Assembly: GCA_017463815.1 (NCBI GenBank)
Contig: JAFTOK010000169.1
Coordinates: 1-49,776, forward strand
Direction of reading: 5' to 3'
DNA: 49,776 bases
Source: Clostridia bacterium
GTDB lineage: Bacteria; Bacillota; Clostridia; Oscillospirales; CAG-272
Shown: positions 1-41,011 of the stretch, piece after piece
How the letters are laid out: each line of letters starts with the position of its first letter
How positions within the stretch are numbered: position 1 is the stretch's first letter
Position numbers and translations under genes: made by a program
The notes under the pieces: generated by a model
Databases searched by the model: none
Seen by the model: only the letters and a program-made list of their open reading frames with translations
What the model was told of the DNA's origin: nothing

Positions 1-35
1 GAAAAAGAAGATATACTTTCGGGCAAAACCAAAAG

Positions 36-148
36 CCTTCCCCAGTGGGGGAAGGTGGCAGCCGAAGGCTGACGGATGAGGTGTGCTGAACGCAAGGTTA
101 CTCCTCATCCACCGCTATCGCGGTCCCCCTTCTCCCACAGGAGAAGGC
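36..148. repeat. Nested-hairpin inverted-repeat element, short cargo-less copy with an alpha arm on the left and a beta arm on the right
   Basis: The left arm is CCTTCCCC-AGT-GGGGGAAGG, then GTGGCA, a GCC-GAA-GGC hairpin, and TGACGGATGAGG. The right arm is CCTCATCC, then ACCGC-TATC-GCGGT, CCCCC and TTCTCC-CAC-AGGAGAA. GGATGAGG and CCTCATCC can pair across a roughly 20-nt core. The 76..279 ORF is a translation of this repeat. Confidence 0.7.
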
Positions 149-169
149 TATCTATAATTCTCTGTAGGG

Positions 170-208
170 CAAACAAAAAGGACAGAAAGCATATACTCTC
201 TGTCCTTT
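170..208 (-). terminator. Rho-independent terminator downstream of the nucleotidyltransferase gene, possibly bidirectional
   Basis: The stem AAAGGACAGA (177-186) pairs with TCTGTCCTTT (199-208). On the minus strand it is followed by TTTTTGTTTG. Confidence 0.6.
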
Positions 209-298
209 TCCTGTCGGTAGGTAACGTATTCTATTTAATTCAAAAACTGTCCTTAAGAGTACGACACTTTTCATCGTGATTTTTTATTTATTAAAATA

Positions 299-1219
299 TC
301 AAACGCAGGCTACCGCTTCCCAAAGCTCTTTCGGGTAAACACCTGCGGCTTTCTGCGCGCGTATAAACTCGCGGAAAGGCTCGCTGTCTTCTATATACGT
401 CACGCCCTTCCACGTGGATGTGGTAGGAATAACGCGCACGTCGCATTTTCCGCTGTCTATAAGCATCTTCACCGTGGTGGGCACGAGAAGCTCGCACTTT
501 GAAAGGTCCTCTTTGTTCTTTTCCAAAAATTCCGCAAAAAGCGGCTTCATATAACCGAGAATAGACGGCGTAAAGCCAAAGCAGTTCATAGAAACCGTGG
601 CGCCCGAGGGTATTTCCGCCACTCTGCCGTCCTCGAACGTGTTCACGATTCTGCCGTCGGCAAGGCGTTCTATTTTCTTGTTTTCCTCTATAAAATCGAG
701 CATTCCCTGCCCATTCACTTTGCAAACCCCGCGCGAAACCGTGCCGTGCTCGCTCAGCGTTTGCTCAAGGTCATAGCCGAGCATACAGTAATGTGCCTTG
801 CCCGTGTCCTCTGCCGTTTCGAGGAAATCGTGCAGTTTTTTGAGCGTGTCGAAGCCATAGAAATCGTCTGCGTTGAGCACGCCGAAGTTTTCGCTCATTT
901 CCCCCAGGGAAAGTATGGCGTGCGTTGTACCCCACGGCTTTTTGCGCTCCGCAGGTACGGCATAACCGCCGCCTATTTCCTGCTTTTGGAAAGCATAGCC
1001 CACTTCAATGCCGCTTCTGCGCACGCGCGCGCCTATGGTGCTTTCAAAAAGCTCAAGGTTCTCTTCTTTTATAATAAAAATAATCTTATCAAAACCCGCA
1101 CGCACGGCGTCGTACACCGTAAAATCTATTATAAATTCCCCATCATCGGTAAGGGGGGTAAGCTGTTTTAAACCGCCGAATCTGCTGCCCATTCCCGCAG
1201 CCATAACAACGAGTGTCAC
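299..1219 (-). CDS. Sugar-phosphate nucleotidyltransferase family protein
   Basis: The N-terminal LVVMAAGMGSRFGG motif is the G-x-G-x-R signature of the NTP-transferase fold. The GTG start lies 8 nt after AAAGGAG. Confidence 0.8.
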   Translation of the reverse strand: MTLVVMAAGMGSRFGGLKQLTPLTDDGEFIIDFTVYDAVRAGFDKIIFIIKEENLELFESTIGARVRRSGIEVGYAFQKQEIGGGYAVPAERKKPWGTTHAILSLGEMSENFGVLNADDFYGFDTLKKLHDFLETAEDTGKAHYCMLGYDLEQTLSEHGTVSRGVCKVNGQGMLDFIEENKKIERLADGRIVNTFEDGRVAEIPSGATVSMNCFGFTPSILGYMKPLFAEFLEKNKEDLSKCELLVPTTVKMLIDSGKCDVRVIPTTSTWKGVTYIEDSEPFREFIRAQKAAGVYPKELWEAVACV

Positions 1220-1367
1220 AAAAACATCTCCTTTTCTTTGTTTTATAATATTATTTTACCATATTTTCACCGTTTTAACAACACAATGGCAAAATTTTAA
1301 GATAAATTTAATAATTGTACGCGGGGCGGCATATAAATTAAATAACTTTTCCCCTCGGAGGCATAAA

Positions 1368-4572: not shown

Positions 4573-4636
4573 ACGCCCTCCCACAATATTTCGCATTTTG
4601 TAGTGCCCTGTTTCGAGAAAAAATTGATGTTTCTAA

Positions 4637-4825
4637 GCCTCCATCTTTGAGGGAGGGGGACCGCACGAGGTTCTCAAATAATGCGAAGCATTGTTTGGGG
4701 TTCTCGGGGTGCGGTGGAAGGAGTTACCAAAGCTAAACAAATTTATTTTTGCAAAAATTCAAGTGCACGCCCACTCCTTCAGTCTTCGCCTTTAGGGCGA
4801 ATCCAACTCCCTCCCGGAGGGAGCC
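4637..4825. repeat. Nested-hairpin inverted-repeat element, short copy in the opposite orientation (beta-like arm on the left, alpha-like arm on the right)
   Basis: The left arm is CCTCC..GGGAGG, GGGGA, then ACCGCAC...GTGCGGT enclosing an extra AATGC-GAA-GCATT hairpin, then GGAAGGAG. The core contains the palindrome ATTTTTGCAAAAAT. The right arm is CTCCTTC, TTCGCC-TTTA-GGGCGAA and CTCCCT-CCGG-AGGGAG. Confidence 0.6.
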
Positions 4826-4841
4826 AACGTCCCAATAAAAC

Positions 4842-4877
4842 AAAAAAACTTCGCCGTTAGTTTTGCCAACGGCGAAG
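4842..4877 (-). terminator. Rho-independent terminator after the transketolase operon
   Basis: The stem CTTCGCCGTT (4849-4858) pairs with AACGGCGAAG (4868-4877). On the minus strand it is followed by a run of seven T. Confidence 0.7.
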
Positions 4878-7580: not shown

Positions 7581-8231
7581 TCACGCAAAGCTAAGTTCAG
7601 CAAAAAAATCTTCGCCAAGATATTCTGCGTTTGCCCTTATAATAACAAGCATATCTTCATAAATCAAAAACACGTATATTTGCTCGCTGTCGCTCATTTC
7701 GCACACCAAAGCGGAAATTTGATTTTCGGAAACGTTTATTTCCTTTTCATATACGTTTTTGTAATTTTCGTAAGATTTAAAATTGTCAATATTCGGTGCG
7801 TCGGGCGCGATTTTCTTTATAAATTCCGAAGCAGAGAGCCCTTTCGCCTCGTCGCCGTTCAAATACGTCGTCCGAATAATCACCTCGCCGCCACTGTTTA
7901 TGCAATAGAACCAAATCCACGGTCTGCCGTAAAGCTCGCTTTCAAGTAAGGTTATGTTACTATACCCCTCGCCGCGATTGCGCAGAGCAAGCGGTTCGCC
8001 GCTTAAATACGGGATTTTCAGCTTTGAAGTATCTTTCGCCATTTCAGAAATGAAGCCCGCAAACTCGCCCTCGTGCTTTTTCGCTTCTTCCTCTGTGAAG
8101 AAAGCGCGCAGTTCCTCTGCGTTTTCAAAGTCGTATGAATTATTTTCGGGCGGAGGACATATGGTGGGCTCACAAGCAGATATACCGAACACAAGCGCCA
8201 AAAACACGATTAAAGCTATTATCCTTTTCAT
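7581..8231 (-). CDS. Hypothetical lipoprotein
   Basis: The signal peptide MKRIIALIVFLALVFGISAC has a lipobox. The ATG at 8231 lies 7 nt after GGAGAG. I recognise no domain. Confidence 0.65.
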   Translation of the reverse strand: MKRIIALIVFLALVFGISACEPTICPPPENNSYDFENAEELRAFFTEEEAKKHEGEFAGFISEMAKDTSKLKIPYLSGEPLALRNRGEGYSNITLLESELYGRPWIWFYCINSGGEVIIRTTYLNGDEAKGLSASEFIKKIAPDAPNIDNFKSYENYKNVYEKEINVSENQISALVCEMSDSEQIYVFLIYEDMLVIIRANAEYLGEDFFAELSFA

Positions 8232-8253
8232 AAACATTCTCTCCTTTGTTTAC

Positions 8254-8282
8254 ATTATAGCATTTACGGCATTGAATGTCAA
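8254..8282 (-). promoter_or_regulatory. Consensus sigma-A-type promoter for the two-lipoprotein module
   Basis: The minus strand reads TTGACA, a 17-nt spacer (ttcaatgccgtaaatgc), then TATAAT. Confidence 0.6.
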
Positions 8283-8445
8283 CAGCACCGTTTTTATGGG
8301 ACGTCGATGGCGGCCGCCCTACAAAAATATAGGCGCACAAAATGCGCGAAAACGGACATTTTTTTGTAAAATATATAAAATTTCGTAATTCACCCCTTTG
8401 GTCGCTCCGAATACACGGAAATATCAGCCAAATTTTGATACAAAG

Positions 8446-8492
8446 ACACCTCATCAGTCCCTTACGGGACAGCTTCCCCTCAAGGGGAAGCC
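8446..8492. repeat. Solo alpha arm of the nested-hairpin repeat family, in reverse orientation
   Basis: The reverse complement is GGCTTCCCC-TTG-AGGGGAAG CTG TCCC-GTAA-GGGA CTGATGAGGTGT. It differs at only 4 positions from the arm at 39687-39733. Two of those positions form a compensatory pair in hairpin 2. Confidence 0.7.
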
Positions 8493-8554
8493 TTGGCAGC
8501 AAGCAATAACCCCTATTTTTTACCCCATACTGCTCAAAATATCGCATTTTTGTA

Positions 8555-8583
8555 TTGAAAAATCCCTTCATATATTGTATAAT
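8555..8583 (+). promoter_or_regulatory. Sigma-A-type promoter for asnS
   Basis: It reads TTGAAA, a 17-nt spacer (aatcccttcatatattg), then TATAAT. Confidence 0.55.
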
Positions 8584-15640: not shown

Positions 15641-16627
15641 ATGCCAGGACCAGGTGGTGGTGGACACGGCGGCGGCGGTCATCGCGGAGGTGGCGGTCAT
15701 CGCGGAGGTGGCGGTCACGGCGGCTTCGGTGGAGGACCGGGTGGTGGCGGACCGAGAGGCTTCGGTGGAGGACCGGGCGGCTTCGGCGGCGGCCCTCGCG
15801 GTTTCGGAGGAGGCCCGCACGGACCTCACGGACCTCACGGACCCCACGGAGGTTGGGGCTGGAGGCGCAGACCTCGCCATTACGGCGGCGGTGGTTGCCT
15901 CGGCTTTATGTTGATGCCCATTATCTTAATCGTATTTGTGGTAGTTATTGCGGCTTCCTCGCTCGGCAGCGCGTTCACTGCCGTTTCAAGCGGCGGTGAA
16001 GTTGCGTACAATGAAACCGCGTTCGGCGATTACGCAAACGATCAGTACGCTGTGGAATTTTCAGATTCCACAGCGTACGAGGATAACCTTATGCTCGTTT
16101 TCCTCGTAGAAGATGACGAATATTACGATTACTACTACATTTCGTGGAAAGGCGACCACATAAACGAAGATATAGTCGAGCTTTTCGGCAACGAATACAC
16201 GGCGTATGGCAAGGCAATCAATTCCAAGGTGAACTCTTCCTCTTATAAATACTCGCTCGATTCCGACCTTGCAAGCGTTATAAACGCTATGGGCGAAAAA
16301 GTAGCATCGCTCGAGCTAACAACCTCGTTCACCTGCAACGAAGAGCACGTTGGCACAAAAAAATCTCACCTTGTGAACAATACAAGCCTGCCGCTCACGG
16401 AAAGCACCGTAAACGCGGCTCTCGAAAAATTCACAGAGGACACGGGCATTCCCGTTGTTTTGGTCGTAGAGGATATCGATGATGTTTTCGAGCGTACGAT
16501 GCCCGTCGGCGCGATTTTCACCATTATTTTGCTTATCGCCATTGTCGCTCTCGCGATTTACCTCATAGTTCGCTCTGTAAAAAAGCGCAAACAGTACGGC
16601 GAAAATGACAATCAGTATTATAACTAA
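15641..16627 (+). CDS. Bitopic or two-TM membrane protein with an N-terminal Gly/His/Pro/Arg low-complexity repeat region
   Basis: The RBS is AAGGAGG. The N-terminus is MPGPGGGGHGGGGHRGGGGHRGGGGHGGFGGGPGGGGPRGFGGGPGGFGGGPRGFGGGPHGPHGPHGPHGGWGW. This is followed by a TM segment, a roughly 190-aa acidic Tyr-rich domain, a second TM segment and a basic tail. Confidence 0.75.
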   Translation: MPGPGGGGHGGGGHRGGGGHRGGGGHGGFGGGPGGGGPRGFGGGPGGFGGGPRGFGGGPHGPHGPHGPHGGWGWRRRPRHYGGGGCLGFMLMPIILIVFVVVIAASSLGSAFTAVSSGGEVAYNETAFGDYANDQYAVEFSDSTAYEDNLMLVFLVEDDEYYDYYYISWKGDHINEDIVELFGNEYTAYGKAINSKVNSSSYKYSLDSDLASVINAMGEKVASLELTTSFTCNEEHVGTKKSHLVNNTSLPLTESTVNAALEKFTEDTGIPVVLVVEDIDDVFERTMPVGAIFTIILLIAIVALAIYLIVRSVKKRKQYGENDNQYYN

Positions 16628-16637
16628 ACGATAAATC

Positions 16638-16664
16638 AAAAAACTCGGCTTTTGCCGAGTTTTT
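16638..16664 (+). terminator. Rho-independent terminator
   Basis: AAAAACTCGGC-TTTT-GCCGAGTTTTT. Confidence 0.75.
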
Positions 16665-16670
16665 CTTAAT

Positions 16671-16759
16671 AACATAGGAAATTGCGCGCAGTTCGTGCGC
16701 AATTTTGCTTCTTCAAACAAAGTTTTCCTTATGCAAAAACGCCCGAAAATCGGGCGTTT
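16671..16759. repeat. Copy A of a roughly 90-nt structured intergenic module (see also 27331-27417)
   Basis: AACATAGGAAATTGCGCGC...GCGCAATT...AGTTTTCCTTATGCAAAAACGCCCGAAAATCGGGCGTTT aligns along its whole length with 27331-27417. Confidence 0.65.
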
Positions 16760-16783
16760 CAGACTGTCGAAAAAGTGATTTAA

Positions 16784-16919
16784 GCCTCTCACTCTGGGAG
16801 AGGTGGCACTGTCAGGTGACGGAGAGGGCTATGATAAAAACCTAAAATTGCATCAAAAGTTTATATTTTTGATGTTTGCCCTCTCACCGCTGCGCGGAGC
16901 TCCCCCATAGGGGGGAGCC
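16784..16919. repeat. Nested-hairpin inverted-repeat element, short copy with an alpha arm on the left and a beta arm on the right
   Basis: The left arm is CCTCTC-ACTCT-GGGAGAGG TGGCA..TGAC GGAGAGGGC. The AT-rich core contains the CATCAAAA..TTTTGATG hairpin. The right arm is GCCCTCTC A CCGC-TGC-GCGG AG CTCCCCC-ATAG-GGGGGAG. Confidence 0.65.
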
Positions 16920-16988
16920 GAAAGTTAGTTTATCGACACGCTAAAACGCCCGAAAATCGGGCGTTTTTTAGTTTAAGAAGTCAACTTT

Positions 16989-18341
16989 TTATTTTTCTTC
17001 TTTATCGAGCTTTTCAAAAAGCTTCTTATACGGCATAAGCATACCCTCGTTCATAGCGTTGCCCATCTTCGCCTTAATTTTCGGCGAGGAAAGGAGCACG
17101 CCCACGAGCTGCATCTTCAGCATTGTGCCGAGCTTCTTTTGCGGGAAGTCATACTGCCCGTGCGCCTTGTAGAACTTGTGGTCTGCCTTCATCATACCCT
17201 GCATAAGCCAGATGAGGTCGCGGAAAATTTTCATACCGCCCACGCCGTAGAAGTTCTGCGGCGGCACGTATTTGTGCTCTATGGCATAGGCAAGCGTTTT
17301 TGCCATACGGTCTATTTCCGCGTTCGGCTCTTTTTCGTCGGTTGCCACACCCGCAAGGAAGTTTGTGCCGACCTGTGCTCTGCCTTCCACTATCATCTGC
17401 AGGTTCTGCTCCGTGCTGTACGCACCGGAAACGAGGTAGCCCACGGGCGAGCCCATCGTAACCGTGCGGTGACCGTTACAGAACTGGCGGTCATCGTACA
17501 TTTTAAAGAGCGCACCCATAGAGTGGTCTTTAATCGTGAAAGCATACACCGTCGCCTGCGCTGTCTGTATGTCGTTTCGCAAAAACTCATCGAATTTATC
17601 GTTGTAGATACATTTGCCCGAAACCGCGCAGTTGAAGCACCCGAGGCAACCGCCCTTAAACGGATATTCGCGCAGGTTTACAACTCTTGTTTTAAGCGGA
17701 AATACCGCGCGGAAACGCGCTATCATAGCCGCGAGCTGCTCGTTATCTTCCTCGCAGTCTGTAACGATTACCACGTCGCCCTTCTTTTCTTCCGCGCCGC
17801 ATTCGGGAATTTCCACAGGGTTGTGTGCAGCGGGCACGGCATATGCCGTATACGGCTCGCAATATCCGTTTTGGGCGCTCCATACGGCGTATTCGAGGAA
17901 GTCGCACGCCTCTTTCTGCCCCTTTTCCGTGAGCAAATCGTCCATATCGGCGGAAAGGCCGCGCACGTATTTCATTCCCATATCCTTGCAGTTTTCTTCG
18001 ACGTATTTGTGCGCCGTTACGTCGTAGAAGTGCTTGGAGGTAGTGATTTGCGTGGCGTATTTTCCCGTGAGGTCCACGCCCGAAGCCTTAAGAAGCTCTA
18101 TGAATCTGTGGAGCTGGCTTGGCGCGATAAACGTATACACGGGGTAAGCGAAAAGGAGCATATCCGCTTTTTCAAGATATTTCACCACGGGCGAAAAATC
18201 GCGCTCCAAAGCTTTGATTTTCTTGCCGACGTGCAAAAATTCAAAAATATGCTCGGGATATTTTTTCTCCAGAAACTTTGCCGTCTGCAAAGTGACGCTG
18301 TATTCGCCTTTAGGGCTGCCGTTCAAAACCAAAATTTTCAT
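16989..18341 (-). CDS. Two-domain flavodoxin-like-fold NAD(P)H-dependent oxidoreductase (iron-sulfur flavoprotein-like)
   Basis: MKILVLNGSPKG...LLFAYPVYTF is an FMN-reductase fold. The second half carries GGCLGCFNCAVSGKC. The RBS is AAAGGAG. Confidence 0.7.
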   Translation of the reverse strand: MKILVLNGSPKGEYSVTLQTAKFLEKKYPEHIFEFLHVGKKIKALERDFSPVVKYLEKADMLLFAYPVYTFIAPSQLHRFIELLKASGVDLTGKYATQITTSKHFYDVTAHKYVEENCKDMGMKYVRGLSADMDDLLTEKGQKEACDFLEYAVWSAQNGYCEPYTAYAVPAAHNPVEIPECGAEEKKGDVVIVTDCEEDNEQLAAMIARFRAVFPLKTRVVNLREYPFKGGCLGCFNCAVSGKCIYNDKFDEFLRNDIQTAQATVYAFTIKDHSMGALFKMYDDRQFCNGHRTVTMGSPVGYLVSGAYSTEQNLQMIVEGRAQVGTNFLAGVATDEKEPNAEIDRMAKTLAYAIEHKYVPPQNFYGVGGMKIFRDLIWLMQGMMKADHKFYKAHGQYDFPQKKLGTMLKMQLVGVLLSSPKIKAKMGNAMNEGMLMPYKKLFEKLDKEEK

Positions 18342-39686: not shown

Positions 39687-39733
39687 GGCTTCCCCTAGAG
39701 GGGAAGCTGTCGCGAAAGCGACTGATGAGGTGT
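39687..39733 (+). repeat. Alpha arm of the nested-hairpin repeat family
   Basis: GGCTTCCCC-TAG-AGGGGAAG CTG TCGC-GAAA-GCGA CTGATGAGGTGT. It ends 1 nt (39734) before the stop codon of the 394-aa gene. Confidence 0.7.
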
Positions 39734-39734
39734 C

Positions 39735-40919
39735 TTATGAGTTTACACCAAAATAAATATTTTCTTTATCGACTAGCAAATCTAAAGGCTGATTATAAAG
39801 CCTATTAACCATATTTATATTATCTATAAAAGGCTCAGCAGAACTGTTTTCAAAAACAGAAATATATTCCATTGTACGTTCTGTACGCTTCTCTCCCAAA
39901 TCTGTTAGTTTATTTCCTTGTTCAATCAAATTTTCATCAATTTGAGATTTATTCACATATGGAATTTTTGCTACAATATTGCCAGCTGATTTGCTTACTT
40001 TTGCAACACCGCCAATAAAATGAGATTGTATGGATGATTTTGAATAAGTTTCTATTTGATTATAGCACTTTTTATAAAGTTCGCTATATGTCAGCTCAAA
40101 ATTTTCTATCTTTCTCGAAATCTGCGTCAAATATCCCTCATCAAAATTCTCAAGAAGCATTACACCTAAATATGCAGAAAATGCATATATGTATGATGCT
40201 AATTGATATTCTTTTAGTAAAGAAGATATTTCTTGCATTTTATTTTTCAAATCTTTATCTATATGAATTAAAGACTGCTTAACAAGTTTTTTATTTATAC
40301 GTTCTTGGTAGAATAAAATACTTGCTTCCGACTCTTGCATGATATCTAAAATTTTAATATAATTGCTATCTTTATACTGTTTATTAGACCAATTATATTT
40401 GTAATTATTTAATATATCAGAAAGCAACGAAAGATTAGCTTTCAAATTAGCTCGTTCTTTTTCTTCTAAAAATTCCAAAATTTCTTTCTGTGCTTCTCTT
40501 ATACTGTCAAGTTTTTGATTAACATTCATCAAAGCAACCGCCATAAAAAGCATTGTTGGGTCGCAAGCAAGCGGATTTAAACGAGCCTGCCCTCCGCCTA
40601 CCATACCGTCTTTATTTAAAACAGCGCCCAAATATGAATTTTCATACTTAAATTTAGCCAAACTACCGCCATTTGGCACAGTTACATAATACAACCCGCT
40701 TTTGGCTTTTCCTCTATTTATAATCGTTTGAACAGCCTGAGTTAATGGTTCAAAGGCAACTCCAAAAGACGAAAGTTCGGATAAAGGCAATTTTTTATAT
40801 TTGTCTAAATCCGTTTTTTCCAGCACCGCAGGAAGTGTAGGAAAAAACTCAATATTTGTCATAGCTTTAACGATATTTTCTTTTTCTAATATCAAAGATT
40901 TCTTGTTTTTTCCAAACAT
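39735..40919 (-). CDS. Hypothetical protein of 394 aa, an orphan with no domain I recognise
   Basis: It is a long clean ORF with the RBS GGAGAAAGAA-ATG. The mixed N-terminal region contains ...GLYYVTVPNGGSLAKFKYENSYLGAVLNKDGMVGGGQARLNP..., followed by a long predicted helical or coiled region. It has no TM segment and no Cys clusters. Confidence 0.75.
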   Translation of the reverse strand: MFGKNKKSLILEKENIVKAMTNIEFFPTLPAVLEKTDLDKYKKLPLSELSSFGVAFEPLTQAVQTIINRGKAKSGLYYVTVPNGGSLAKFKYENSYLGAVLNKDGMVGGGQARLNPLACDPTMLFMAVALMNVNQKLDSIREAQKEILEFLEEKERANLKANLSLLSDILNNYKYNWSNKQYKDSNYIKILDIMQESEASILFYQERINKKLVKQSLIHIDKDLKNKMQEISSLLKEYQLASYIYAFSAYLGVMLLENFDEGYLTQISRKIENFELTYSELYKKCYNQIETYSKSSIQSHFIGGVAKVSKSAGNIVAKIPYVNKSQIDENLIEQGNKLTDLGEKRTERTMEYISVFENSSAEPFIDNINMVNRLYNQPLDLLVDKENIYFGVNS

Positions 40920-40962
40920 TTCTTTCTCCGTGATTTTCTTAAAGAGTTAATTTATGTGCGTA

Positions 40963-41011
40963 GCATCCTCATCCACCGCAAGCGGTCCCCCTTCCCCCGC
41001 TTGGGGAAGGC
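40963..41011 (+). repeat. Beta arm of the nested-hairpin repeat family
   Basis: GCATCCTCATCC ACCGC-AA-GCGGT CCCCC TTCCCC-CGCT-TGGGGAAGG. It lies 17 nt from the mutS2 stop codon. Confidence 0.7.

Follow-up and report, generated by a model that had tools for sequence, protein, structure and literature searches.

Introduction

Knowledge of the BoxC/PIT/TMECO repeats goes back to the 1990s, and we are aware of no origin, partner protein or function found for them. Among the other small repeats of bacterial genomes, MITEs such as Correia/NEMIS, RUP, BOX and ERIC carry terminal inverted repeats (TIRs), lie between genes, fold back strongly and are polymorphic for presence or absence. DUF559, for its part, is a very widespread protein family to which, to our knowledge, no function has been assigned, and we know of no DUF559 protein whose nuclease activity, binding or cut site has been established.

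Repeats of the BoxC/PIT/TMECO type have been reported from Escherichia coli, other Proteobacteria and Cyanobacteria (PMC4666352, citing Bachellier and Hoyne & Maher). The TMECO motif itself, CCCTCNCCC N3-6 GGGNGAGGG N3 GGGNGAGGG, was found in 262 proteobacterial genomes, with no mobility genes in its neighbourhood and no stable triplex in vivo (Holder et al. 2015, PMC4666352). The rules applied there call for stems of at least 7–8 nt with at most one mismatch and for a third, purine-rich stem that runs antiparallel to the purine stem; the antiparallel purine-motif triplets used by the ITxF finder are AA, GG and TA (PMC4666352). The loops allowed are short, namely 0–10 nt for Hoyne, 1–6 nt for ITxF and 3 nt for loop 2 of TMECO (PMC4666352). 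In REPIN–RAYT systems, the replicating entity is an inverted doublet of short palindromic units that is present in hundreds of intergenic copies (PMC3116915; PMC3337134). Finally, a survey of PD-(D/E)XK enzymes groups Vsr with DUF559 and DUF2726 (clade 'VSR, DUF559, DUF2726'), together with a homing endonuclease (PMC3424549).

Here, we describe a family of intergenic inverted repeats whose arms combine features of these systems and bracket DUF559 genes. It is found in Clostridia, whereas TMECO has been reported only in Proteobacteria (PMC4666352). Our literature search returned no paper that links DUF559 to such repeats, or that brings together 'mirror repeat' and 'triplex' with Clostridia.

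Results

Anatomy of a complete element

The window, i.e. the whole stretch of 49,776 nt that was analysed, is contig C135 of a Clostridia metagenome-assembled genome (MAG) of 259 contigs, 2.24 Mb and 47% G+C, which is 78% complete and whose closest DUF559 loci indicate an uncultured gut member of the Clostridia/Eubacteriales. The repeat unit spans positions 34–149 (116 nt) and is a complete gene-less element of class I (see below), consisting of an alpha arm, a 21-nt spacer and a beta arm (Table 1). Each arm is a triad made of a pyrimidine/purine (Y/R) hairpin, a structured mini-hairpin linker and a box of 8–9 nt. A preliminary description had outlined this architecture for positions 36–148; it proved accurate, as its arms, linkers and boxes were all found on direct reading, and the variant boxes that it listed at 16784–16919 (GGAGAGGGC/GCCCTCTC) and 4637–4825 (GGAAGGAG/CTCCTTC) are present too. 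It had also regarded the open reading frames 76..279 and 8170..8571 (minus strand) as spurious, and both indeed translate repeat arms (...TPHPPLSRSPFSHRRRL... and ...LPLEGKLSRKGLMRC...). In annotations of Clostridia, arms of this family give rise to spurious ORFs of the '...PSPxGKA...' kind.

Read in reverse, the box of the alpha arm (GGAGTAGG) matches the purine strand of its hairpin (GGGGAAGG) at seven of eight positions under the purine-motif rule, and the box of the beta arm gives an 8/8 mirror match to GGAGAAGG. The single-stranded DNA folds predicted for 34–149 (z = -6.4 on the plus strand and -7.4 on the minus strand) contain an 8-bp helix between box and box', which in doublets would compete with a triplex. 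A blastn search with window positions 1–1300 revealed nine further copies of 33/34–149 in the genome, 80–93% identical and with differing flanks; two more copies (C146:11842-12132 and C231:25275-25553) share a larger context, corresponding to window positions 1–291 at 95% identity.

Besides this copy, the window contains the arms and elements collected in the lower part of Table 1. The class-III element carries a nested insert of ~45 nt in its left mini-hairpin and an outer extension of ~30 nt on its left side. The block delimited by the two arms at 39688–41010 encloses a gene for a 403-aa AT-rich orphan, which had no match in a Pfam search.

Table 1. Features of the repeat family in the window
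Feature	Position	Strand	Description
Alpha arm	35–81	+	Direct reading; hairpin, mini-hairpin linker and box, in that order
Alpha Y/R hairpin	35–56	+	CCTTCCCC-AGTG-GGGGAAGG (also read as AGCCTTCCCC-AGTG-GGGGAAGGT)
Alpha mini-hairpin linker	57–73	+	GGCAGCC-GAA-GGCTGAC
Alpha box	74–81	+	GGATGAGG
Spacer between boxes	82–102		21 nt
Box'	103–110		CCTCATCC (+ strand reading)
Beta linker	111–127		ACCGC-TAT-CGCGGT + CCC (+ strand reading)
Second Y/R hairpin (beta)	128–147		CCTTCTCC-CACA-GGAGAAGG
Beta arm	103–148	-	Hairpin CCTTCTCC-TGTG-GGAGAAGG, linker GGG-ACCGC-GATA-GCGGT, box GGATGAGG
Class-III element	4607–4825		Boxes GGAAGGAG/TGAAGGAG, hairpins GAGGGAGG/GAGGGAGC
Solo class-I arm, T type	8449–8491	-	Hairpin GCTTCCCC-TCAA-GGGGAAGC, linker TGTCCC-GTAA-GGGAC, box TGATGAGG
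Terminator hairpin, left copy of 24-nt duplication	16736–16759		AAAACGCCCGAAAATCGGGCGTTT
Class-VI element	16760–16942		Arms 16784–16919, boxes GGAGAGGG/TGAGAGGG, plus ~23-nt outer inverted segments
Terminator hairpin, right copy of 24-nt duplication	16943–16966		AAAACGCCCGAAAATCGGGCGTTT
Class-I arm, T type, left end of arm-gene-arm block	39688–39730	+	
Class-I arm, beta type, right end of the same block	40967–41010	-	

A large family that avoids genes

About 190 copies of this putatively triplex-ended repeat are present in the genome. An nhmmer search of the 2.24 Mb, seeded with six arms of the window, recovered ~98 arms and 23 inverted pairs. A scan for the triple block yielded 240 candidate arms versus 53 in the reversed genome used as control, and 116 versus 8 at a threshold of at least 7/8; it produced 59 paired elements, 48 of which have spacers of 9–61 nt. 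These two approaches superseded a simple regular expression for pyrimidine hairpins, which had badly under-counted the family. The elements occur in both orientations and their arms avoid genes: 25 of 116 arm midpoints fall inside ORFs of at least 150 aa, while such ORFs make up 86% of the genome. For 26 of 214 arms, the nearest contig end is no more than 150 nt away; the repeat family therefore breaks MAG assembly and its true copy number is higher.

Copies beyond the window, on which the preliminary description had made its proposal of a family depend, were thus found in the rest of the genome and also in related MAGs. Its statement that the family could be assigned to no named class was borne out inasmuch as there is no clean match to an IS, an Rfam family or a REP (in Rfam, no match at the gathering score and none on any element at E up to 5), but a described relative does exist in the form of BoxC/PIT/TMECO (PMC4666352).

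Each box mirrors the hairpin of its own arm

Tabulated over the whole genome, the elements fall into about six classes defined by box and by the purine strand of the hairpin: class I, (G/T)GATGAGG with GGGGAAGG, GGAGAAGG or GGGGAAGC; class II, (G/T)GAGGGAT with AAGGGAGG or AAGGGAGC; class III, (G/T)GAAGGAG with GAGGGAGG or GAGGGAGC; class IV, (G/T)GAAGGGG with AGGGGAAGG or AGGGGAAGC; class V, GGAGGGGA with AAAGGGGAGG; and class VI, (G/T)GAGAGGG with GGAGAGG or GGGGGAGC. The two arms of one element always belong to the same class.

In every class, reversing the sequence of a box yields that of the hairpin's purine strand within the same arm, so that the two form a mirror repeat. This rule was evaluated in the genome itself on 12 classes, with one representative per class and equal scanning freedom for all templates: boxes matched their own hairpin at 7.58 of 8 positions, versus 6.17 for other hairpins (0/200,000 permutations). 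An independent set of 29 DUF559 loci from across the order, which were found with the C30-type DUF559 protein and whose hairpins were picked blind to the box, gave 7.06 versus 6.10 (again 0/200,000 permutations). Direct-repeat controls, in which the box is compared with the purine strand without reversal, showed no signal in the genome (p = 0.23) or in the 29 independent loci (p = 0.44), and pairing of the box with the Y strand as an alternative hairpin is rejected on these grounds. In the independent set, a perfect 8/8 box accompanies 33 of 49 hairpins that face the gene versus 6 of 46 that face away from it, and further perfectly mirrored classes are found there (AAGGAGGG/GGGAGGAT, AAGGGGAGC/TGAGGGGTT, AAAGGAGC/TGAGGATTT and GAGGGAGG/GGAGGGAG).

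The correspondence follows a defined code. Over 35 distinct pairs, the putative third strand has G opposite G in 164 of 180 cases, A (55) or T (27) opposite A (82 of 84 together) and T opposite a terminal C in 13 of 15. When the register is fixed by the other seven positions, hairpins that end in G face a G in 99 of 150 arms and those that end in C face a T in 77 of 96; as these arms were pre-selected by the same rules, the type of match or mismatch is the sole informative aspect of these figures. The commonest arms (GGGGAAGG with GGATGAGG) display one triplet mismatch, at which the hairpin pair has changed with compensation (T-A to C-G) and the box is unchanged. The mirror code of the boxes corresponds to the triplets of an antiparallel purine-motif triple helix (G.G-C, A.A-T and T.A-T). 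Mirror symmetry is not a product of Watson-Crick pairing, and template switching yields direct or inverted repeats rather than mirror repeats. Because neither process accounts for it, we read this symmetry as selection for a third strand that folds back, and the covariation between box and hairpin points to an intrastrand DNA triplex. A G-quadruplex reading of the G-rich arms was also considered; it does not predict mirror covariation.

These data modify the view of how the boxes are maintained. The preliminary description had noticed that both arms of a copy carry the same box variant, which is true across elements, and had concluded that each copy maintains its own pairing. However, the variants belong to about six classes and not to single copies, and box changes confined to single copies are uncompensated in the partner arm (C100, GGATTAGG/GGATGAGG; C256:142, GGATGAGG/GGATGAGT; C160; and the cassette of C35). 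In the same vein, the two boxes of the L139 cassette differ (GGGAGGATT and CGGGGGATT), each of them tracking its own hairpin and not the partner box. A box covaries with the purine strand of its own arm's hairpin, in a mirror-wise relation that Watson-Crick pairing does not explain, and a framing in terms of RNA covariance or R-scape consequently misses the main signal.

The linker is a covarying mini-hairpin

The class-I linkers of this genome and of 80 foreign loci amount to 76 distinct sequences, of which 40 are of the form TGKC-hairpin-GWC (alpha) and 36 of the form GGGACC-hairpin-GGT (beta); no third design was found among them, and the two arm types proposed at the outset thus constitute a real dichotomy. 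Watson-Crick covariation is present in the mini-hairpin linker. In alpha stems, 85% of the cells are paired versus 65% in shuffles, cells with a double change number 46 versus 16.6 in shuffles (0/500 shuffles reach the observed value), and the covariation score is 0.462 with slid controls at or below 0.118. The covariation that the preliminary description anticipated is therefore real, but as Watson-Crick pairing within the linker and not as pairing of box with box' copy by copy.

Alpha loops are GNA triloops in 22 of 40 linkers, nearly all of them closed by C.G as in GCGAAGC, which we take to be the classic hyper-stable DNA mini-hairpin of the GNA type. A G.A mismatch is kept at the base of the alpha stem in 24 of 40. 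By bringing the 5' end of the box beside the 3' end of the purine strand, the linker would work as a structured loop 2, with a length of 12–40 nt and itself a covarying hairpin.

Arms bracket every DUF559 gene of the genome

Five PF04480 (DUF559) genes are found in the genome, with scores of 93–108 bits (cut-off 20.6) and E values of 1e-26 to 1e-31; the matches span positions 2–108 of 109 and are free of internal stops. All five are arranged as arm-gene-arm, with the arms inverted. Only a few nucleotides separate the start of the gene from the 5' box, whose sequence also provides a Shine-Dalgarno-like GGAGG/GAGG; the stop falls inside the 3' arm or a few nucleotides short of it. Pairwise identity between the five paralogues is only 41–47%, and the classes of their arms differ (I alpha/beta, I T/T, II, III and V), the paralogues of C98, C30 and C90:6227 belonging to classes I, II and III, respectively. 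Residues D50, E61, D63 and H67 are invariant in the five paralogues and in E. coli YcjD, and the nearest solved structure by sequence is 3HRL (E 1.8e-9). Since arms bracket every DUF559 gene of the genome, this nuclease is a testable candidate for the partner of the repeat.

Each abundant doublet class of the genome (I, II and III) has a cassette of the same class. Moreover, class-III doublets have a left spacer homologous to the 5' leader found in the cassette of that class, a relation that deletion derivatives would show. Cargo other than DUF559 also occurs between arms, i.e. the 403-aa orphan of the window and a 172-aa ORF (C146:16639-17255) without significant Pfam match; these genes sit exactly between the arms and start just after the box. 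The genome contains a single match to PF01797 (Y1 transposase), at a contig end (C97:4-246); no arms were found on contig C97, and a RAYT/IS200 transposase is rejected as the partner on this basis.

The association with DUF559 extends to other genomes

With the C98-type DUF559 protein, 80 loci that encode 69–90% identical proteins were collected from other MAGs. Full flanks were available for 59 of them: 48 are bracketed by arms on both sides, eight carry a single arm and three carry none. Their hairpin (GGAGAAGG) and box (GGATGAGG) are nearly invariant and the stems and loops of the linker vary freely; the sole box variant, GGAAGAGG in L072, has A for T opposite A, a substitution compatible with the triplex code. 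The 5' arm is of beta type in nearly all 80 loci, the box ends typically 7 nt upstream of the ATG, and the C98-type cassette has its downstream terminator context in common with several of the foreign loci. The order of the arms depends on the clade, as C98-type cassettes almost always have beta at the 5' side, C30-type cassettes have a G-type arm at the 5' side and a T-type arm at the 3' side, and cassettes outside these two clades are beta/beta or T/T. A fixed rule relating arm type to gene orientation in all classes is thus rejected. DUF559 homologues on viral contigs of IMG/VR are also flanked by arms, including class-VI arms (L157 and L158).

Among 31 relatives, the net number of arm-pattern hits correlates with the number of DUF559 genes (Spearman 0.55), and at least 30 net hits are found in 7 of 13 DUF559-positive versus 0 of 18 DUF559-negative genomes, both figures being obtained with loose patterns and uncorrected for relatedness. 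Exceptions exist in both directions: arm-like hits occur in three genomes that gave no DUF559 match (G008, G014 and G029), and two (G011 and G023) have DUF559 genes and almost no arms of the counted classes. Likewise, the congener G005 has at least 13 class-VI doublets and no class-VI cassette in its assembly, which is 85% complete. As gene and arms are physically linked, a class shared across species can result from plain co-inheritance.

Elements are polymorphic and one class duplicates terminator hairpins

The elements show insertion polymorphism, and two copies of the window bear on their mobility. The ~248 nt around the class-III copy (~4590-4838) are absent at the orthologous site of the congener G004, which reads ...TTTTCATACGCCATCCCCCAAAAAACAAAAAAACTTCGCC and in which the start of a 728-aa gene and the upstream terminator are ~20 nt apart. 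The class-VI copy (16760–16942) splits a repeated intergenic module of ~130 nt, of which an uninterrupted paralogue is present at 27316–27447. On either side of it stands an identical 24-nt copy of the terminator hairpin of the module, a hairpin that this paralogue has once.

In G005, at least 13 copies of window positions 16757–16947 are found at 83–92% identity. Five of the eight class-VI copies examined there are flanked by duplicated hairpins of 15–32 nt, a different hairpin in each case; the duplication is perfect for two of them (15 and 32 nt) and imperfect for the other three (23–27 nt). These variable, hairpin-length duplications suggest that the cuts may be set by the structure of the target and not by a fixed stagger. 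A flank comparison of 50 elements revealed no general target-site duplication beyond the null, and the ends of class III vary between short and long forms with extra outer inverted segments.

Discussion

Taking these results together, we lean towards reading 34–149 as a DNA-level, gene-less doublet, similar to a MITE or a REPIN, of the ends of a DUF559 cassette, with each end being a split triplex repeat of the BoxC/PIT/TMECO type. The cassette itself consists of a gene for a small Vsr-fold PD-(D/E)XK nuclease bracketed by two structured ends. Once the DNA is single-stranded or unwound, the box would turn back onto its hairpin and supply the third strand of an antiparallel purine-motif triplex, with the mini-hairpin acting as a structured loop between hairpin and box, and such a triplex may form in vivo. 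The gene-less doublets would derive from cassettes by gene loss. From the arrangement of gene and arms, we infer that DUF559 acts on the arms: each paralogue may recognise and nick arms of its own class and in this way spread or maintain doublets, as RAYT transposases do for REPINs. An ambitious extension of this reading, which we consider doubtful as a whole, is that DUF559 together with split-triplex ends constitutes a DNA system of a new kind, mobile or self-maintaining, in which each paralogue reads its own 'triplex code' at the ends of cassettes and doublets, terminator hairpins serve at least one subfamily as insertion sites through cuts that straddle the hairpin (hence the 15–32-nt duplications), and the BoxC/PIT/TMECO repeats are short-loop relatives.

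The relation between gene and repeat could also be the reverse. Arms and doublets would then be primary, as a REP-like repeat that is tolerated by or useful to the host and spreads by other means, and DUF559 would be a homing-type passenger that inserts into the centre of doublets like other cargo. The non-DUF559 genes that lie exactly between arms and start just past the box fit this order of events, as does the presence of a group-I-intron homing endonuclease in the Vsr/DUF559 clade (PMC3424549), and both the genomes with arm-like hits that lack DUF559 and the class-VI doublets of G005, without a cognate cassette in that assembly, are in line with it. However, a passenger would hardly be expected to have arms in five of five diverged paralogues, each with its own class, nor would the spacer of a doublet be homologous to the leader of a cassette as it is in class III. 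Besides, no other mobility gene is linked to the repeat, the single Y1 transposase being on an arm-less contig. On balance, we regard a passenger role of DUF559 as possible but rather unlikely.

Far less plausible is that the element acts, for example as an sRNA, a terminator or a regulatory RNA, in the form of a structured transcript or of a long interrupted stem in which Watson-Crick pairing of box and box' is kept in each copy. Strong predicted folds with the 8-bp box:box' helix, covarying mini-hairpin stems and the many copies that adjoin terminators would agree with an RNA. Nevertheless, the relation between box and hairpin is a mirror and not a complement, for which RNA offers no explanation; RNA, moreover, is said to be incapable of purine-motif triplexes (PMC4666352). 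Box changes in single copies are uncompensated, the boxes of cassettes are 350–1,240 nt apart and those of the L139 and C35 cassettes are non-complementary; in addition, copies are found in both orientations and Rfam gives no match even at E up to 5. Finally, a REPIN or MITE moved by a conventional transposase (RAYT/IS200-type Y1, or DDE) is highly improbable in spite of the REPIN-like architecture of an intergenic inverted doublet of palindromic units in hundreds of copies (PMC3116915), given that the one PF01797 match of the genome is at a contig end without arms on its contig, that duplications of fixed length are lacking and that the gene between the arms is DUF559 and not a transposase.

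Under the preferred reading of 34–149 as a doublet of DUF559-cassette ends, three described systems invite comparison. With BoxC/PIT/TMECO, the family shares the succession on one strand of a pyrimidine run, the purine run complementary to it and another purine run in mirror order to the first (G.G, A.A, T.A), together with a G/C-rich, intergenic, multi-copy nature, a lack of strand bias and tolerance of one mismatch. It therefore has, by sequence potential, the three blocks that define a BoxC/PIT/TM triplex, but not the short loops, since its loop 2 is a hairpin of 12–40 nt. Such a loop lies outside the published limits and leaves the family invisible to published searches. The stems (CCTTCCCC/GGGGAAGG, CCTCCCTT/AAGGGAGG and similar) also depart from the TMECO consensus. 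With the three blocks present and both loop limits and consensus exceeded, we consider the family a variant of the BoxC/PIT/TMECO type and not a member of it. Unlike TMECO, its units come in inverted pairs of two linker types, and several classes coexist in one genome.

In its working, the family looks most like REPIN–RAYT, with a different enzyme fold. Inverted doublets of short palindromic units, 48 of 59 with spacers of 9–61 nt, would be the replicating entity in both cases, and units flank a small intact gene that is single copy per class and syntenic across species. Here, however, the gene is not a RAYT: it encodes a Vsr-fold PD-(D/E)XK nuclease instead of a Y1 HUH enzyme, and the unit is a three-block triplex instead of a simple REP hairpin. 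Concerning the enzyme, Vsr and I-Bth0305I belong to the same fold clade as DUF559 (PMC3424549). Vsr is a housekeeping enzyme that nicks at T/G mismatches and I-Bth0305I resides in a phage group I intron; unlike DUF559, neither is flanked by structured inverted repeats. The likeness to the Correia/NEMIS, RUP, BOX and ERIC MITEs, drawn from their description only, is weakened by the lack of a DDE-transposase parent and of a fixed duplication. As the elements do have TIRs but neither a duplication beyond the null nor a transposase parent was found, they are not classical MITEs, and class VI differs further from bacterial MITEs by duplicating whole terminator hairpins of 15–32 nt.

The family ties repeats of the BoxC/PIT/TMECO type to DUF559 in Gram-positive gut anaerobes. 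As a structured linker can stand between the hairpin and its third strand, existing triplex finders under-count such motifs. Moreover, mirror-coded classes that coexist in one genome, each with a diverged nuclease paralogue, constitute ready cognate and non-cognate pairs for binding or nicking assays, and the duplication of whole terminator hairpins upon insertion of one subfamily hints at structure-directed cutting. More distant DUF559 homologues from IMG/VR (L163 and L165) are accompanied by canonical triplex motifs with a 3-nt loop, e.g. GGGAGAGGGG-CCG-GGGGTGAG, and these short-loop motifs provide a bridge between the split-triplex family and BoxC/TMECO. A PF04480 search of the E. coli genome used as control gave no match although RefSeq annotates YcjD as DUF559, which is probably a miss of this first look; the ycjD gene itself ends in CCCTCTCCC...GAGGGGG.

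Nested repeats within and around the elements

The gene-less 116-nt class-I doublet lies, together with a terminator-like hairpin at 176-209, inside a larger unit of ∼285 nt, three copies of which are present in the genome with 95% identity and differing outer flanks (Table). A second case of nesting is seen in the class-III element, whose left arm carries a ∼45-nt insert that was found again in the mini-hairpin loops of arms of different classes, both in the same genome (contigs C195, C134, C141, C256, C51 and C55) and in the relative G005. This insert looks like a second-order element targeting the linker hairpin. At the intergenic site orthologous to window ∼4600-4850, the congeners G002, G003, G009 and G010 (loci L019-L023) carry a different short module, TACTTTCTTGAAAGAAAGTAGGCAAAGAACTTT, either singly or as several copies in tandem. 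This site is therefore a hot region where different repeats occur.

The class-VI copy splits a separate intergenic module of ∼130 nt, which occurs twice in the window and at least five more times in its own genome, while the congeners G003, G004, G006 and G009 contain 10-20 copies each. It may represent either a further family of repeats or the gene for a small RNA together with the terminator of that gene.

Coordinates of repeat units in the window and its genome
Feature	Position	Description
∼285-nt unit	window 1-291	encloses the 116-nt element
∼285-nt unit, other copy	C146:11842-12132	
∼285-nt unit, other copy	C231:25275-25553	
∼45-nt insert	window 4662-4712	GGGGTTCTCAAATRATGCGAAGCATYGTTTGGGGTTCTCG, itself a hairpin
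∼130-nt module, split copy	window 16657-16759 + 16943-17000	TAACATAGGAAATTGCGCGC...terminator...GTTGACGAAGTCAAC-T run
∼130-nt module, second copy	window 27316-27447	uninterrupted copy

Cargo genes and viral homologues

Besides DUF559 nuclease genes, two examples of other cargo were identified between arms: a 403-aa orphan (window 39688-41010) and a 172-aa ORF bracketed by class-I arms (C146:16639-17255), whose ATG is located 3-4 nt past the box (GATGAGGTGTCT-ATG) and which gave no significant match in Pfam.

Among IMG/VR contigs, class-VI arms adjoin a DUF559 gene in L157 and L158. In L163 and L165, canonical short-loop triplex motifs, in which loop 2 is CCG or TCG as in TMECO type B, flank DUF559 homologues that are more distant (32-40% identity). 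The PF04480 search of the E. coli control genome returned no match, although YcjD (b1289) is assigned to DUF559 in RefSeq and can be aligned with the DUF559 proteins of the window's own genome. The missing match probably results from a miss of the first-look filter.

Other features of the window

An ORF at 15641-16627 includes a periodic GGTGGCGGTCAT... repeat (18/21/36 nt; 15653-15829) that codes for a Gly/His-rich low-complexity stretch. Two neighbouring paralogous small genes (26263-26591 and 26818-27146), located 555 nt apart and 73-80% identical in DNA, correspond to repeat families D5 and D8.
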